A DNA stretch of 63,584 nucleotides, filler included, from Vannella sp. (Eukaryota): NCBI GenBank assembly GCA_023345925.1. It is 5 parts of 5 records of this genome, joined end to end, with 100 filler letters (N's around TTAATTAATTAA, not from the genome) between each part and the next. Parts side by side here need not be neighbours in the genome. Positions count along the whole stretch, not along the records: positions 55,634 to 63,584 come from JAJQQN010001420.1; 4 more parts are not named here. One strand, written 5' to 3'. The position numbers were made by a program, and so were the translations under genes. The notes beneath the pieces are model-generated. The model made no database searches and was not told where the DNA came from. It saw only the letters and a list, made by a program, of their open reading frames with translations. This document shows, one piece after another, positions 26,757-57,488 of the stretch. Position 1 is the stretch's first letter. Each line of letters begins with the position of its first letter.

Positions 26757-28241
26757 TTATTTACTCTTGTCATGGTTGAAGGCCTGATGCAGCAGTTCCC
26801 CCAAGCACACAATTAGGCTGAGCCCAAAGGCTCCGAATGAAACGGTTGCGAAGAAGAGAAACATCGAATGGATGTCCAAGTCCAGCGCAGACTTTCCAAC
26901 AACGAATTGGATCGCAGTTTGGAGGGAAAGAGCCAAGATCGTCTTGATCGAGAAGATGACTGCGTAGTTCAGGTTCTCCACTAATCTATCATGCAAAGGG
27001 TGAGCATCCTTGCAAAGGAGAGGACTGGAAGAACGCACTCTCGGGCGATCATGACGCTGGAGATGGGGTACATGAACTCAAACAGCGAGTGGTACGCCAC
27101 GAATAGCCCATAGGCTATGAAGAGATTACTAGTCATTCCTAGAAGAAGGAGAAGAGAGCCAGTGATCGCTGGAGCCAGAACGAATGCAAACGGAGCAAAC
27201 CCATTCTGTGACGTTGCCACCGTTCTCTTCAGAGGTGCTGGATAGGTCAAAGATGAAGCTTACCAGTAACTTGAAGGAGAATTGACTCGGTATGAGTGTG
27301 GCAATGGCGGCAATGCCGTAAGCAATGCCGTAGATCACTCCATTGAGATCAGTTGAACCTCCGTCATCGCCCCACAGCGACTGGATGTAGACCAGAACGA
27401 GCTGGTGGATAGCCAAGAAGGTAGCTGACCATAAGATCCACTTGATAACCATCCAGTTGCGCACAGCGCTGAGAACCATCTTGGCATTGTGCTACTTTGA
27501 GTGAGCCAAAGCGCCTTCCCACGGATTGGTTACCTTCACAAGGAGAAACGAACTGCACTGAGGTTGTGTAGGAGTTAGAAATGCAGATAGGACCGTGGCA
27601 ATGGACAAAGCAAGCAAAGTGACAGCGAAAGAAGAGTTAATGCCGACAAAGTTGACCAAAAAGGTGCCTGGAACAGTCAGAAAGCGGTCAAACCTCTCAG
27701 GATCACCTCTAACCTAAGAATGAAGAAGTGATCGAGGAGAGAAGCTGTGTAGATCGCGAGTAGCTCGTCTGGAGGGATCATGAGCTACGAGAATGCGGTT
27801 TCTACCACCTACCGCCTTCAAGAAGTAGGCCTCCGGTATCAAAACGAAGAGATATGATGTGAAGATCACGCCTGATGCTGATCCCAGGCCCTCACACCAC
27901 TGATCCAAGTACATAACGTAAAGATACCCGCTGTGGGAGCTGTAAGTTGTCGGGATGAGAAGCAGGAAGCATCCCATCCATATGGCCACAGAGCCAATGA
28001 TGATACACATCTTATACGAGATGATCTCAGCCACCAGCGCGAGGAGGATGGCGAAGAGGAAGTAGGAATACGTCCACATGGGGAAGATGTCTTGATAGAC
28101 CTGTTTAGACGTGAAGCCCTTCTCATTCACCAGCCAATCCACCAGATAGGCTTCACTGGGCTTGAAGATGACAAAGAACCAATACAGCAGCGCCAGAATG
28201 GCGCCCGCCATGAAAGGATGCTCCCTCAGCCACCCGCTCAT
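26757..28241 (-). CDS. SLC19/reduced folate carrier family (folate/thiamine) transporter
   Basis: KPSEAYLVDWL, IFPMWTYSY, YKMCIIIG, KWILWSA, YIQSLW, NGVIYG, FSIKTILALSLQT; multiple TMs over several exons. Confidence 0.85.
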
Positions 28242-32948: not shown

Positions 32949-34385
32949 CTTCACCACCAAGTCGCTCTTTGTCGGCCACACTGACTTCCAGTACACTCGA
33001 TGGCAAGTGATTGATACCCCTGGTATCCTCGATCATCCATTGGAAGATCGTAACACAATTGAGATGCAATCCATCACCGCGTTGGCCCATCTCCGAGCAG
33101 CCATCCTCTTTGTCATCGACCTGTCGGAGCAGTGCGGCTATTCTCTCACCCAACAGCTTGCTCTGTTGAGTAGCATCAAGCCTCTATTCAGCAACAAGCC
33201 CCTCATCCTTGTCGCCAACAAAATCGACGTGATGACTGTGGAACAGATGCCCGCGGACAACCGCAAGATCCTTGAGGATTTCCTTGCTGAGAGCAAGATC
33301 ACTATGCTTTGTACAAGCACAGTCACCGAGGATGGTATTGCTGAGGTGAAGGAGAAGGCCTGTAGCCAGCTCTTGGCTCAACGCGTGGAGATGAAGATGA
33401 AGGGCAAGCAGGTTCCTGGTCTGATCAATCGCCTTCACGTGGCCACTCCACGTCCTAGAGACAACAAGACTCGTGGTTCTTCAATCCCAGACTCTGTTCG
33501 CGAAAGAAGAGCGAATCCTGTGGAGCCCATGGTTGTGGACCAGGGCAAACCACAAGCTGTCGTCACGATCGGCGGCCCTTCAGCCTTCGAGGTGGATCCA
33601 GACTGGAACCCTCAAATCCACGACAGCGAAGATCTCCGAGGTATGTTCTCCCCAACTGTGCGAAGAGCGGTTACTGATGACTGGAACAGAGTTCTACAAA
33701 CTCCGCAACGATGAGTGGAAGTTCGACAAGATCCCCGAGATCATGGATGGCAAGAACATTGCCGACTTTATCGATCCTGACATCGAACGCCTTCTGGACC
33801 AGCTTGAGGAAGAGGAGATGGAGCAGATGGAACTTTTGCAAAGAGCCATGGAGGAAGAGGATGATGTGGATCTAACAGAAGAAGACAGAGCTCTTCTGAA
33901 GGAGGTTCAGGAGTCCAAGGCTGTCCTCATTCAAAACAGCCGCTTGAAGCAGAAGATGAACAGTGCCCCCATTCCTCGCAAGCACAACGCTGCGAAGACT
34001 ACAGTGAAGGACTTTGAGAAGCACCTTAACGATATGGGAATGGACCCCACCAAGGCCGTGGAGCGGGCCAAGAGCAAGTCGCGAGGACGATCAAGCGCTC
34101 GTCCAGACCACGAAGTTTCAGTCGGCGGCAAGCGCCGAAGGGATCAAGTGGACTTCTCTCCTGGAGAAGGTCTTCGGGATGTCAGCGTAAGTTACACTCA
34201 CTCCTCCCCACTCCCTTCTGACCCTCCCACAGCAAAAGAAGTTCGCCAAAACCATGGAGCGACGCTCACAGAAGACCCGAAACCAAGATGGGCGCATGGG
34301 AGAGGCAGATCGACACGTTTACATCAAGAAGAACAAACATCTCCTCTCTGGCAAGACTGGAAGTGGAACCAAAGATCGCCGCTAA
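32949..34385 (+). CDS. NOG1: Nucleolar GTP-binding protein 1 (NOG1/GTPBP4), 5' truncated
   Basis: [69 protein letters not shown]-terminal GEADR..HLLSGK..GTKDRR*. Confidence 0.95.
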
Positions 34386-39168: not shown

Positions 39169-41500
39169 CTTGAGCAACAACCAAATCAATGGAACGCTTC
39201 CTTACTGGGCCGGATTGACAGCCCTCTCTACGGTAAATCTGGGAGGAGTTACCAACCGTCTTTGTGGACCTCTGCCAGATCCTCGTCCAAAGAATTATTC
39301 CATTACCCTCTCTAATCAGGTGTTTGAGTGCTCTTCCTTTCCACCTGGTTACGTTGCTACCGGAGGAACATGCAATCCCATCACGGGTGTGTGCGGTTAC
39401 TCAGCTTCTGCAACCAAAACAACCTCTCCAAGTCGTACCGTTTCAGCAACATTCTCTGGAAGTAGTAGCAACAGCAGATCTGTCTCTCCTTCTAGAAGCG
39501 GAAGTTCCACCCTTTCAGTGACACCCTCTGGAAGCCGCAGCACGAGCAGATCGGTCTCTCCTTCTGGTAGCGGAAGTTCCACCATTTCAGCAACACGCTC
39601 CCCGAGCAGCAGTGTAACTTCCTCTCCCAGTGCAAGTTCCACTTGTTCGGCAACACCATCTTCCAGCGAAACTCGCAGCGCTTCAGGCTCAGCATCTCCC
39701 AGTATGAGCGTAACTAATTCAGGAACGCCTTCTTCAAGCGAAAGCGAATCGCACTCTCCATCTTCAAGTGCAAGTATCACTGGATCAGAAACATCTTCTT
39801 CCAGTGATACTCCCAGTCCATCAGGCTCAGAATCTCCCAGTGAAAGCGTCACTACTTCTTCAACGCCTTCTTCGAGTGGAAGCGAATCAAGCTCTCCATC
39901 TTCAAGCGCAAGTATCACAGGATCAGGAACATCTTCTTCCAGTGACACTCCCAGCACATCAGGCTCAGAATCTCCCAGTGAAAGCGTCACTACTTCTTCA
40001 ACGCCTTCTTCGAGTGGAAGCGAATCAAGCTCTACATCTGCGAGTGCGAGCATTAGCATCACTAGCTCAGCTACACCATCTTCCAGTGGCAGTTACAGCA
40101 TGTCGCGCTCAGCTTCTCTCAGTGAGAGTGTTACTCCTTCTTCAACGCCTTCTTCGAGTGGAAGCGAATCAAGCTCTTTGTCTCCGAGCCCAAGTATCTC
40201 TGACTCACACACGCCAACTTTGAGTGGAAGTGTATCAAACACTCCTTCTGAAAGCCAAAGTCAAACTAGTTCCGCGATGACCTCTCCCAGTGGCAGTGTT
40301 ACCAATTCAAATTCTCCTTCCTTCAGTACGAGTTCCACTGGCTCAGCTACATCATCTTTCAGTGAAACTTGTAGCGTATCGGGCTCTTCTCTTCTCAGTG
40401 AAAGCACAACTGCTTCTTCAGCAGCCATCTTCAGCACAAGTGGATTGGGCTCTTCATCTCCAAGCCCCAGTATCACTGGCTCTGCCACGCCTACTTTGAG
40501 GGAGAGTGAAAGTGAATCTGGTACTATTTCAGAAAGCGAGATTCAAACCAGCTCAACAACAGCCCCTCAAAGCACCAGTGAAAGTGGCTCAGATTCTCCA
40601 AGTGCAAGCCTCTTTTACTCAAGTGAGACGACGAAACCAACACCCAGTCCCTCCGTGGATCTTAGTGCGCCCACGGTATCCTCGATACTTGAGTCAAGTT
40701 CTTCTTCGATACGCCCAAGCGAATCTCTCTCTCTGAGCCCTTCAGTACCTCAAATCAATCTGGGAAGTGGATCACAATCGATCAGTCCGTCGGTTTCCAC
40801 TGCTTCTGCCACTCGTCTTATCACTCCTGCTGTTATTTACCCCTCCAATCTCACATCCAATGGATGGGTGAAGCTGTCTGACTCTCTGGGAGTGGATGTG
40901 GAGGGAGCTCTCTTTGTCCCGCCCAACTTGAGTAACCAACCCAACACCACTTTGATCACTGTTCCTGTGAGCGCCGCTATCGGAAACTCCTCCAGCCAAG
41001 CGCTGGTCAGCACTATCCTGAACATCACTCTTTTGGATGGCGAGGGCAACTCCATCACTCAACTGGACTCGCCGCTAACCATCTGCCTGGCCCTTCCCAA
41101 CAATACCAAGAAGAGTGAGAGGGTGTGCCTGAGCTATTATGACGAGCGCAAAGACAAATGGAGATGTGAAGACGAGTGTCTGACCAATGTTGCAACCAAG
41201 GGCAACAACGCACCCAACACTGGGGGCAATCAAGAGAACCTGCTGTGTGGCCAAACCGGTCACCTCACCAACTTTGCACTTCTGCTGATTGGAAACGATG
41301 GAGAAGATCCTTGCCAGTCTGGGGGGAAAAGCAATACCCTCGCGTGGATCTCTCTTGGAATGGTGGGCGGAGCTGTGCTGGTGGTGGCCCTTTCTGTGCT
41401 GGCTGTTGAAGTTCACTTCCGCTGGAGGCAATCTCAATTCAACAGAAAACTCTCAAAGGCTTACTCGCAAAGATCAGGGATCACAGCGAGTACAGACTAG
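39169..41500 (+). CDS. Single-pass surface protein: LRR remnant + Ser/Thr-rich mucin-like stalk + GAIN/GPS-like motif + TM (5' truncated)
   Basis: LSNNQINGTLP and NRLCGPLP (plant-type LRR end), ~450 aa S/T-rich, CLSYYDE..W.C...CGQTGHLTNFALL (GPS-like), TM WISLGMVGGAVLVVALSVLAV. Confidence 0.8.
39700..40200 (+). repeat. Coding tandem repeat, 138-bp (46-aa) Ser/Thr unit
   Basis: TGAAAGCGTCACTACTTCTTCAACGCCTTCTTCGAGTGGAAGCGAATCAAGCTCT at 39841 and 39979, with partial copies near 39725 and 40140. Confidence 0.85.
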
Positions 41501-50600: not shown

Positions 50601-51341
50601 TCACTCTGGAACAGCCATGAGTGGGAGGAGTGCACCTCCGAGAGGAATTACTGCGTGGACTCTGAATGGATCCGTGGGTCCGATGCGAGTCATGACGTAG
50701 ATCTCCTGAATGGTAAAGTGGGAAGGCTTCCATTGCTCCTGGTATTGCTTTTGGAGTGCCAATGCGGTCTTCTTGTCCCGGAAGAAAGCGATCCCGATGT
50801 GAGGAACGAATGGCCCTTTGCCGTGCGAAGGAAACTCCGCCTTGCAAACCTGGTAGATGTCGTTCAATGAACTCCCGTTCACCTGCGGCTCCAGAAACAA
50901 CGTTTGGGAGCCTGCATTATCGAACATGGCAATCTCATTCAGACTCATCTGGAAGGGCGCGATGTCTTTCAAACTCTTCCTCAGGACGAGGGCCGCATCC
51001 TCCACTCGATCGGGCAGGACAAACGGGGACAGTAGAGTGATGTGAGGGTAGGGTGGACGCTTGATGCGGGGATTCATGTGCTTCTTCTTCATATCCACAA
51101 TGGCTCCCCAAAACTCCGAGGGTGGGCAGATTACCAGCGTCACTTTGGCGTCCGTTCCCGAGAAATCATAAGAAGACGGAGATGGGAACAAGTCTTGTTT
51201 TGAGGAAGGAGGAGGAGCCCGAACAACTGCAATTGGGGCAGAGATATCCCGAACCAAAGCTGCTTTCCTTCTTTCAAACTCGTTGTCCTGGATGAATCCA
51301 GCTTGGTGGAGCTCTATCAGAGCTTCAATCGTGTCTCTCAT
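50601..51341 (-). CDS. SHOCT-like N-terminus + 2H phosphoesterase (2'-5' RNA ligase-like/LENG9-like)
   Basis: LIELHQAGFIQDNEFERRKAAL; LVICPP, PYPHITLL.PF, PHIGIA. Confidence 0.8.
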   Translation of the reverse strand: MRDTIEALIELHQAGFIQDNEFERRKAALVRDISAPIAVVRAPPPSSKQDLFPSPSSYDFSGTDAKVTLVICPPSEFWGAIVDMKKKHMNPRIKRPPYPHITLLSPFVLPDRVEDAALVLRKSLKDIAPFQMSLNEIAMFDNAGSQTLFLEPQVNGSSLNDIYQVCKAEFPSHGKGPFVPHIGIAFFRDKKTALALQKQYQEQWKPSHFTIQEIYVMTRIGPTDPFRVHAVIPLGGALLPLMAVPE

Positions 51342-51468
51342 GAACTGGAATGAGCATCTCAAGAAGCAAAAGCAACCAAAACACTGTTCCCAAGGTTTTC
51401 CAGAAAAAAGTGAGAATGCGTTGCGGTACAGAGGATTTAAAAGAGACAGAGAGGTTCGAATGCATGTC

Positions 51469-53047
51469 CTATTTCATGGAGAGGAGCATGGCGTTGGGCT
51501 GTTCAACGAAAGTCTTCATAGTGTTGGAGAAGCGGGCCATTGTGGCTCCGTCTATGACTCTGTGATCCGCGCTCCAGCTTAGTGGGATGATGTGAGCAGC
51601 GTAGACTTGGCCTTTGGCATCAAATCGGGGAAGAGTTTGGATCTTGCCAAGAGCACCGATCGCCACTTGAGGGAGGAAGAGGATGGGAGATGCGTACGTC
51701 CCTCCAATCGCGCCAACGTTAGAGAGAGTGAACGTACCACCTTCCAGGTGCTTCTTTTCCAACTTGCCAGCAGATCCCAGCTGTTGGAGTGAGTTCAACT
51801 CGCGTGCGATCTCCAGGATGCTCAAATCTTGGACATTCTTGATGTTGGGGACGATCAAACCAGCTGGAGTGTCCATAGCAATACCAATGTTGTGACTACC
51901 CTTCAAGGTCACTGCCGTACAGTCCTCGTTCGTGTAGGCATTGAGATCAGGGTACTCTTTGAGGGCCAACGAGCACGCCTTGATGAGGAAGGGGAGATAA
52001 GACAGCTTAATACCACGCTCTAATGCGATGGGCTTCATCTGTGATCGCAGTTCCTTCAGCTCATTGATGATCATCTCCTCGCAGTAACCAAAGTGGGGGA
52101 TTTGGCACGCTGCGGTCATGCTCTTCACCATCACCTTGCGAATACCCTTGATTGGGACCTCTTGATCCTCTAGCTGGTAGCTTGGAGTACTCGCTGTGAC
52201 AGGGAGGACTTTCTCTAAAGCAGGGGCAGCCATACTGATAGGCATCTTCTCAGTCACCTTGCTGATAGGCGTACGTCCGTTTGCAAGGTAGCTGAGAATG
52301 TCTTCCTTCAAGACACGTCCTTCTTTACCGGAGAAAGCGACTTGGCTTAGGTCGATGTTGTGCTCTCTGGCAATACGGCGGACTGCAGGGGTAGCAAGGA
52401 CCTTCTCAACAGTTAGAAACGAACCAGAGGGGATGAAGGTCCTTTCCCTCACTCTCCTTACCTTTAAAGGACCACCGCGGGTCTGAATGGTCTGGAACTG
52501 GGTTTCGTGGTCGCCATGAGTGTTCAATGTTGGTAAAGAAGCATCGACAGGCAACTCCTCGGCTTGTTGGGTCTCTGCACCTTCCCCTTCGATACGAATA
52601 TCAACAAGGGGCTTGCCAACCTTCGCCATATCGCCCACAGCGTAGTGGATCTTTGTTATTACTCCATCGTAGGGGCTTGTGATCTCTGCAGTGGCTTTGT
52701 CGCTTTGTACCTCGCAGATCATATCGAATTGCTGGATCTGTTGACCCTCTTCTACATGCCACTTGATGATCTCGCACTCAGCGATGCCCTCTCCCACGTC
52801 GGCAAGATTGAACGGTGTTGGGGCCACTGCAAAGTACCGCCAAGCTGTACTCATCAGGGGTTGGATCCTCCCTGTCGATCTCCTTAAGGCTGGGATGCTG
52901 TAAAGAGCGAAACTCTTCTTCCAAGAAGGTAAGGAGGACTTCCAACAACCCCCCGCACCGTCCATTTGAGCTTACCTTGGTAACAGCAGCACATCGTAGA
53001 GGTCTCGATACCTGCAACACGCCTCGAACACTTTGCCGAGCCAACAT
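51469..53047 (-). CDS. DBT: Branched-chain alpha-keto acid dehydrogenase E2 (dihydrolipoamide acyltransferase)
   Basis: LADVGEGIAEC, EVQSDKA lipoyl site, LATPAVRR, IPHFGY, GGTFTLSN, SWSADHRVIDGA; presequence MLARQSVR. Confidence 0.95.
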
Positions 53048-55633: not shown

Positions 55634-57488
55634 CGATGAGCAAATCGATAATCTCATCTCGATTGTTCGCCACAGCGAGATCCAGAGCTGTCTGACCCAT
55701 CATTCTCAGTACTCCTTCAAAAGCACCCTTCTCCTCGCGGAAGATACGTCTTGACCATTCCAATCCAAAGGTCATAGATGCTGGTGAGACAATCACTTAC
55801 TTCCTAAAAAGATCCCTGAAAGATGAATGAGAGTCCCTATTTCTCCTCGCTCGCACTATGATAGCTAAAGGATGGATCCCACTTACCCCCTAAACACCGC
55901 CCCTTCAGGTGAGATCAAGCTCCCTTCAAGTGCCCCCTGGGCCCGGAGCGATCAGGCAGCCACCTACCCGCTAAAGATATCCCTGTGGTGAGGGGGTCGT
56001 GATCTTCTCCTCTTCCCTCTGGAAGAGTGGATAGTGCGAGTAAGTCACCTACATGCTAAAGATAATGCGAATAAGCGCTACGTTCCCTGGAGCTACTCGC
56101 TTTTCCTATTAAAAGGCAAATTACCGGCTACAATAGAGCTGGTCAGAAGGAGCCATGGCGTGTGCCCCATTGGACCATCCTCTGGGAATTAGAACAGCTT
56201 TCTGAGGCCAAGGTCTCAAAAGCCACAATTAGGCAGCCATAACCATTTGCACTCTTCCAGACAGTAATCTCCCACCTCCCGAGGAGCAAGGTCTCAGCAA
56301 AAGTCACTTACACACTAAAAAAGCGGCCGTTGAGAATCTCTTCTGCCGAAAGGAGAGAACAAACCTCATTAACTGCGATCCCAGGTGAGCCGAGTAGATA
56401 TCTGACAATCTCGATCTGTCCTTTTTCGGAGGAGTATCCGAGAAAGGTCTGATTCCCTTAAGATGAGCTGAGCCCTTCTCGATCTCCCGAAAGAGGCATT
56501 TCGATTGAGTGGATGGTGGATCTGTCACTTACATTCTAAATCATCCCGAAGGTGAGGTTCTCCTCTTCTTTTCCATCTGCCTATCAGAGAGAAAGACATC
56601 GAAAGTCATAAGGGTGGGGCGAATGGGCCACTAACCCACTAAAAGCATATCAAAAAGGTGAGCTTTTCCTTCAGCTATTCCTCTTGAGGGTCCTTCTCCT
56701 TCTCCATCAAAGGGAAGTGAATAATCAACCACCTACACGCTAAAAGCAACCCCATTATGGTGAGTCCTTAATCTTTCTCCTTCCCCATCAACGGAAGGAA
56801 CCATTGATCAGTCACTTACACTCTGATTGCATCACAAGGTGAGTTCTCCTGCTCCTCTTCATCTCCTTTCTCCAAAGAAAGAGACATTAAAGGGGAGGAG
56901 CTGATGGATCTGCCACTTACAGACTAAAGCATCCCCAAAGGGTGAGTTACTCCCTTCTCCTCTTCTTCACATCAAAGAAAGACGTCAAAAGAGGGCCAAT
57001 GGATGATTCACTTGCATTCTAAGCACCCACAAAAGGTGAGTTGCTCCCTCCTTCTCCTTTCCTTCCCATCCCTGAGAGAAAGAAAAATCAAGGAAGGGGC
57101 TGATGGATCAGTCACTTACTCCCTTTTTGAAAGCATCCCCACAAGGTGAGTACTTCTTCCTTCTCCTCCCACCGAGAGAAAGAGAAACCAAAAGGAAGGC
57201 TAACGGATCAGTCACCTACATCCTAGAGGATCCCCATAAAGGTAAGCTCTTCTCCTTCCCATCAAAGAATGGGACATCGAAAGGGAGGAGCTGACGGAGC
57301 AGTCACTCACTTCCTAAAAGCACGACCAAATGGTGAGCCCTTCGGATCCCATCAAGCGGGAGCGAGAAAGGACAGCCAAAATGAGAACGCACTTTGTTGA
57401 GGGCATCCGGATGAGAGTGCAAGAAGGCTTTAACCTCTGGTATGCTCCCAGAGACGATGGCGGCGTAATGGGCCTTCGTGCAGGCCAT
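55634..57488 (-). CDS. Ankyrin-repeat protein with codon-sized microexons, 3' truncated at contig end
   Basis: Exon 57488-57393 MACTKAHYAAIVSGSIPEVKAFLHSHPDALNK; nine 3-nt exons; exon 56448-56365 TFLGYSSEKGQIEIVRYLLGSPGIAVNE; at least six 3-nt exons; exon from 55691 TALDLAVANNRDEIIDLLI; all junctions phase 0. Confidence 0.8.
55692..56364 (-). repeat. Second, more diverged microexon array
   Basis: AC-NNN-CT cores at 56312, 56125, 56053, 55968, 55887, 55801. Confidence 0.8.
56449..57392 (-). repeat. Tandem array of nine ~85-105 bp intron/microexon units
   Basis: Plus-strand consensus ...gatggatcagtCACTTAC-NNN-CTAAAgcatccc...aGGTGAGttctcc...; NNN at 57311, 57220, 57120, 57016, 56921, 56820, 56737, 56636, 56533. 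Confidence 0.9.

Follow-up and report, generated by a model that had tools for sequence, protein, structure and literature searches.

Two arrays of putative one-codon exons between the ankyrin exons of a probable amoebal gene

Can the loops of an ankyrin protein be spelled by exons of a single codon each, and are such loops varied by splicing or in the DNA itself? This question is raised by a gene at positions 55634-57488 (minus strand) of a 63.6-kb window, by which we mean the whole stretch of DNA analysed, in which contigs are chained by N spacers. Between three large exons, all of them open (32, 28 and at least 19 codons on the minus strand, between 57488 and 55634), the gene carries two sets of AG-NNN-GT (or GC) units, nine in loop 1 and six in loop 2. 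Four DNA runs contain the stretch, namely X1-X3, which were obtained from biofilm in one study, and X4, which was obtained from freshwater in a second study and represents a small share of the stretch that was confirmed by three near-identical pieces.

The 15 triplets and the three large exons all read at the coordinates that the original prediction had given them. Exon 1 (57393-57488) consists of an ATG and an N-cap-like ankyrin repeat of 32 aa and ends in a phase-0 donor, GTGCGT. It is followed by the loop 1 cassettes GAA (E, 57311-57313), GAT (D, 57220-57222), GGA (G, 57120-57122, with an AAG acceptor), AAT (N, 57016-57018, with a GC donor), TCT (S, 56921-56923), AGT (S, 56820-56822), CGT (R, 56737-56739), TGG (W, 56636-56638, with a GTTAGT donor) and AAT (N, 56533-56535), the last of which has an identical codon in X4. 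Exon 2 (56365-56448) encodes, in 28 aa, the helices of an internal ankyrin repeat (positions 4-30 of the profile). The loop 2 cassettes are TGT (C, 56312-56314), again with an identical codon in X4; CCG (P, 56125-56127), which has the weakest donor (GTAATT) and is preceded by a 184-nt intron unlike the others; CAT (H, 56053-56055); CGG (R, 55968-55970), which falls at the consensus Asp position; GGG (G, 55887-55889), which falls at the consensus Gly of G-x-T; and GAA (E, 55801-55803). Exon 3 (55634-55691) is a third, C-cap-like ankyrin repeat. All of these features lie on the minus strand, and they are separated by 17 introns of 50-184 nt, mostly 78-101 nt in the arrays.

Exon 3 is truncated by the contig end at 55634, and the gene continues beyond it. 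The 3' part that the original prediction regarded as missing could be recovered for 30 nt past this end, but no C-terminal domain was reached. These 30 nt, which X1 and X2 share without a difference, add ten open codons to the frame and include a possible additional GTGCG donor. A contig of 950 nt in X1 extends 713 nt beyond 55634. Inspection by eye found no continuation of the ankyrin gene at the other contig ends of the window. The last intron (55692-55740, minus strand) contains a decayed family-type acceptor stretch (GGGTGCTTTT...) that is not followed by a donor and may be the remnant of a seventh cassette.

The acceptors of the cassettes comprise 13 TAG, one CAG and one AAG, and their donors seven GTAAGT, four GTAGGT and one each of GTGAGT, GCAAGT, GTTAGT and GTAATT (14 GT, one GC), which bears out the prediction of GTAAGT/GTAGGT/GTGAGT/GTTAGT-like donors, most of them matching the consensus type. 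A branch-like CTNAY is present upstream in 14 of the 15 units, 19-28 nt before the exon, and the CTCAC motif that had been noticed in most units indeed lies upstream of the acceptor in ten. The strict motif YAGNNNGTRRGTG has 11 matches in the whole 63.6-kb window, all on the minus strand at 55794-57316 and inside this gene; in 100 shuffles its mean was 0.88 and its maximum 4, and none reached 11. All cassettes are in phase 0 and none is a stop codon, as had been claimed, but with 0.84 stops expected among 15 codons, finding none in this one gene is not significant.

Similar signals occur elsewhere in the window. An intron of the NOG1 gene at 34187, which is backed by a gap in the tblastn alignment, is 46 nt long and has a GTAAGT donor and a CTGAC motif, and a candidate intron at 27038, recognised by motif only, has the donor GTGCGTTC and CTCACC, as in intron 1 of the ankyrin gene. 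Because both carry like signals, those of the cassettes suit the host; the array introns are about twice as long as the NOG1 intron. In the region 56449-57392 (minus strand), we observed TGC within 15 nt of the acceptor, a feature shared by seven of the 15 cassettes. The UGC motif is associated with animal neural microexons, and the TGC near the acceptors recalls it, but shared descent alone may explain the occurrence. Intron hairpins formed by pyrimidine and purine tracts were considered as a means of steering splicing and rejected, as none of the 16 introns (of 17) that were folded gave a significant value (z -1.88 to +1.61).

Other genes of the window make a discosean amoeba, and probably a vannellid, the likely host. 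The NOG1 gene, which lies on a different contig, encodes a protein 80% identical to one from the library of 'Tiarina fusa'; heavy contamination of that library is reported in PMC6859813, with an 18S contig that aligned to Vannella robusta among the contaminants. In a quick NOG1 tree the window falls in a starred clade separate from animals and fungi. Histidine ammonia-lyase, whose gene shares a contig with the ankyrin gene, is placed by FastTree among environmental sequences, in a clade grouping with Clydonella, Sappina and an unnamed EukProt row (support 95). Other genes of the window include a 688-codon ORF on a eukaryotic contig (43118-45184, plus strand) that matches AbiEii nucleotidyltransferase (E 5e-8), of a bacterial toxin-antitoxin family; a long Ser/Thr-rich membrane protein (39169-41500, plus strand) that has no Pfam match but, by eye, a GPS-like motif; and two 2'-5' RNA ligase-like ORFs on the same contig (45185-46108, plus strand, recognised by eye, and 50601-51473, minus strand, with a Pfam match). 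Upstream of the ankyrin gene, the ATG of exon 1 and the start of a divergent NAD(P)-binding gene are about 210 nt apart, so that the ankyrins are N-terminal and there is no room for a NACHT domain.

That the large exons encode ankyrin repeats, as originally predicted, is supported by Pfam (weakly), PDB and Atlas matches, with exon 1 assigned by Atlas features alone. As a single short repeat, exon 2 matches Pfam Ank/Ank_2/Ank_3 under the cut-off (E 0.04-0.19); among PDB sequences it matches 46 at E<=10, the best with E 1e-4, almost all of them named as ankyrins. Exon 3 has weak matches, also under the cut-off, to Ank_3 (E 0.003) and Ank (E 0.01). Exon 1 has no Pfam ankyrin match; in the Atlas it falls first into an ankyrin cluster (0.95), on a low count of 122 shared features.

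In the register of the 33-position Pfam model, exon 2 stops at position 30 and exon 3 begins at position 4, leaving a gap of six repeat positions that equals the six cassettes of loop 2, with Gly falling at position 2. PMC4308713 describes a designed ankyrin library in which the randomised positions include 33, 2, 3 and 5, placed in the beta-turn binding surface; the six positions of loop 2 include all four (numbering offset by two). The cassettes thus coincide in loop 2 with library positions of the variable beta-turn loop, where the original prediction had placed them.

Isoforms were scored with a profile of 33 bacterial two-repeat units, which is small and fits exon 1 badly. Loop 2 with all six codons reached 26.9 bits and ranked first of 64, versus 13.5 for direct joining of the exons. 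In an order test, 123 of the 720 arrangements of the six residues scored equally well, so that the placement of Gly alone (a 1-in-6 chance) gives p of about 0.17, and with a smaller 15-unit profile a four-codon loop 2 ranked just above the full one. Loop 1 with all nine codons ranked 505th of 512 and subsets of 3-6 codons scored best, with scores spanning only 11-20 bits. Among the 33 reference units, ten have spacings longer than 33 and three shorter, which makes a nine-residue loop not unusual. A loop longer than the canonical one, as had been proposed, is thus seen in loop 1 (nine codons) but not in loop 2, which is exactly canonical (six). The ceiling of 2^9 x 2^6 patterns (2^15 = 32,768) is to be corrected to 376 x 64 = 24,064 distinct peptides, because loop residues recur.

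Comparison among cassettes, paralogs and runs revealed variation in the DNA. The array introns align as tandem relatives, and pairwise identity within the gene is 0.30 for codons versus 0.50 for intron cores (0.32 versus 0.58 in loop 1, 0.27 versus 0.45 in loop 2). The summed depth of X1-X3 is 300-1400 on the cassette flanks, whereas over the neighbour gene it is about 3-6. Where a contig links an acceptor and a donor of the family type (depth 5-60), the codon between them is GTC, TTC, CTC, GTT or CAA (coding strand), and contigs about 87% like the end of exon 1 (depth 8.7 and 20.5) lead into three different intron-1 starts. Many more cassettes and paralogous first exons point to a large family of multi-copy nature, in line with the high flank depth and the paralogous exon 1 ends; the summed depth does not measure copy number, however, and related species may contribute to it.

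In X2 and in X3, the intact contigs are accompanied by a single contig (depth 2.3 and 2.5, respectively) that lacks 1738 nt (55736-57473). The deletion removes most of exon 1, both arrays and exon 2, the acceptor of exon 3 is altered too, and these contigs likely represent a null haplotype. Across the incomplete cover of the four runs, including two cassettes in X4, no codon difference is listed at this copy, and fast DNA turnover is therefore not seen there. Diversification at the DNA level, by codon change between cassettes and paralogs and by a haplotype without arrays, is what the data display directly and was overlooked by the original prediction. By analogy, the gene is likely a member of a family of amoebal recognition receptors, and a role in non-self recognition is suggested only by the same analogy together with signs of birth and death.

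Relatives of the gene were sought in several collections. A protein search with exon 1 returned five candidates, none at E<=10, and against 1.84 billion representatives exon 1 had two matches, both to unrelated repeat proteins, and no spliced relative. A family-specific DNA pattern had four single matches in prokaryote genomes, which by their count are not arrays, and none in viral contigs; a three-cassette pattern had two matches in viral contigs, both of which were rejected as plain repeats. The three-cassette scan of metagenomes yielded 114 stretches from nine of the 64 parts of the collection (about 860 are estimated overall), many of which are plain satellites. From 115 loci (113 metagenome, two viral), 38 chains of five or more cassettes, spaced by 45 nt or more, were obtained; one duplicate (L054) and 15 chains that contained no more than three different codons were removed, and 22 arrays were kept. 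This variety filter was set after the satellites had been seen, and two of the chains dropped by it (L092 and L095) hold six stops.

The 22 metagenome arrays contain one stop in 359 codons versus 21.9 expected from base composition, and this strong depletion supports the coding nature that had been proposed for such triplets. Codon identity is lower than intron identity in all 22 (medians 0.32 and 0.72), and their inner spacers measure 3 nt in 359 cases and 1, 2, 4 or 5 nt in one, a count that is partly circular. At one locus (L053:1802-7570, plus strand), 76-78 cassettes rich in D, L, R and K follow the last ankyrin repeat, with no stops versus 7.3 expected. Two NACHT genes (L020:4706-6996, plus strand, and L036, minus strand) continue into a codon array where sensor repeats would be expected (31 units in L020). 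A GTPase gene with a Pfam match (L028:2397-5202, plus strand) is followed by an array rich in N, Y, W, R and D, and L037, L054, L056, L040 and L004 resemble it by eye, with 11-39 cassettes across this group. GC-rich arrays with units of about 90 nt and varied codons (L043, L111-L113 and L115) have an inner CAG-CGA-GCG look-alike cassette in each intron. From domain and intron style, the hosts of the NACHT, GTPase and ankyrin arrays would be fungi. No metagenome locus resembles the present array by blastn (best E 0.86), and for want of such similarity the codon-array design looks convergent. The occurrence of 22 variable arrays among 113 loci in nine of 64 parts suggests that arrays of this kind occur commonly and that gene finders overlook them.

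How, then, are the triplets best explained? A repeat, or an array of an intron-generating mobile element, within a dead ankyrin gene would account for the high summed depth on the flanks and for the broken haplotype, and the pattern search did catch plain satellites too. Such an origin is nevertheless very improbable: the spacers are always 3 nt long yet variable, unlike target-site duplications, blastn finds the array nowhere else in the window (best E 0.25), the six codons restore the repeat exactly, comparable arrays are strongly depleted in stops, and all three large exons are open. We consider it highly probable that the 15 triplets are coding exons. They might be constitutive microexons without a diversifying role, an intron-rich spelling of an ordinary ankyrin protein comparable to animal Sowah, with which the canonical loop 2, the absence, across four runs, of codon variants at the locus and the annotated 3-nt exons of Drosophila sowah (PMC8042270, Table S4) would agree. 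Introns that are tandem copies around codons of near-random identity, high-copy flanks that bear different codons and the deletion haplotype argue against this explanation, which we judge improbable.

Combinatorial skipping could instead be the main mechanism, with each transcript taking a subset of codons, as in the Tuber model, and a single gene yielding thousands of loop variants. Every unit is in phase 0 and can be skipped without harm to the frame, loop 1 offers nine codons for six positions, where partial sets fit the profile better, and the 184-nt intron shows that introns of the size left by a skip are possible in this gene. The Tuber equivalents are reported, in the sources cited below, as extensively alternatively spliced, and arrays of 31-76 units elsewhere would yield odd low-complexity peptides if fully included. 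Yet loop 2 has precisely the canonical length and its score falls with any skip, most donors are consensus-like, and a nine-residue loop is not out of place among reference spacings that are longer in 10 of 33 cases and shorter in 3 of 33. We regard skipping on this scale as possible but rather unlikely.

The explanation to which we lean, if only slightly, combines a full loop 2 as the default in the mRNA with loop diversity at the DNA level. Two tandem arrays of 'short intron plus one codon' between the three ankyrin exons would spell beta-turn loops of the predicted binding surface. The introns would be removed one by one, so that the main mRNA would likely contain loop 2 complete, with its six codons, and loop 1 with most if not all of its nine. 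Every loop residue has a look-alike, phase-0 unit to itself, and for this reason the duplication or loss of units, or sequence exchange among units and paralogs, could alter single residues and leave the frame intact. Skipping would add variants at the RNA level, likewise without harm to the frame, and most likely in loop 1: loop 2 requires all six codons for the repeat register, which argues against heavy skipping, and the better fit of partial sets of the nine codons leaves room for it in loop 1.

Free-living amoebae host giant viruses and intracellular bacteria, and for their non-self recognition the present gene provides a concrete candidate family that would vary the exact ankyrin positions that engineers randomise. 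Up to nine consecutive putative 3-nt exons also bear on the minimum size of serial exons that a spliceosome can handle, and a mechanism for which a single truffle paper is cited would be extended to a further supergroup. In its boldest form, which we advance only tentatively and think doubtful, the locus would be a natural DARPin library, in which the loops of an amoebal receptor are built residue by residue from one-codon exons and splicing yields thousands of variants per gene, and an instance of a convergent, almost undescribed device on fungal and protist immune-type genes with ankyrin, NACHT or GTPase domains.

The NACHT-ankyrin (nank) NLR genes of Tuber melanosporum were reportedly described by Iotti et al. 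in 2012. Arrays of 3-nt exons are not ordinary, as the long-read account of Coprinopsis gives only 27 such exons in 26 genes (PMC12230235), and in the literature outside subscription journals and bioRxiv supplements no amoebozoan or other protist case was found. Drosophila sowah also has 3-nt exons annotated in FlyBase, but these are few (two of 3 nt in Table S4 of PMC8042270) and spaced by kilobases, with no tandem look-alike introns. The MEGs of schistosomes share runs of short exons, down to 3 bp, but, as outlined in PMC10526429, they encode secreted proteins from exons of 3-81 bp with long introns and have no repeat-scaffold loops. Brown algal ROCO and NB-ARC-TPR genes are presented in PMC13449251 as candidate immune receptors varied by repeat-level exon modules, splicing and paralog exchange; an exon there is a whole repeat, whereas here it would be one residue. 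DARPin-type libraries have the same order of cap, internal repeat and cap and vary the beta-turn at positions 33, 2, 3 and 5, but they are engineered, and helix-1 positions, which here sit in the large exons, are randomised too (PMC4308713). The closest known case is that of the Tuber nank genes, the precedent named in the original prediction, for which secondary sources (PMC4986451, PMC13449251, PMC9815663, PMC3689799) report tens of alternatively spliced 3-bp exons. Both cases have runs of 3-bp exons in an ankyrin gene and a proposed diversification of the recognition domain, the likeness lying here in genomic layout alone; the family is expanded in Tuber, and here depth and loose ends point to many copies. 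Alternative splicing is reported as extensive in Tuber, whereas the present cassettes are known from genomic DNA; the host there is a fungus and here likely an amoebozoan; and here the 9 + 6 cassettes occupy two inter-repeat loops of ankyrins that are N-terminal and have no upstream NACHT, which makes this gene one of nank-like layout rather than a member of the nank family.
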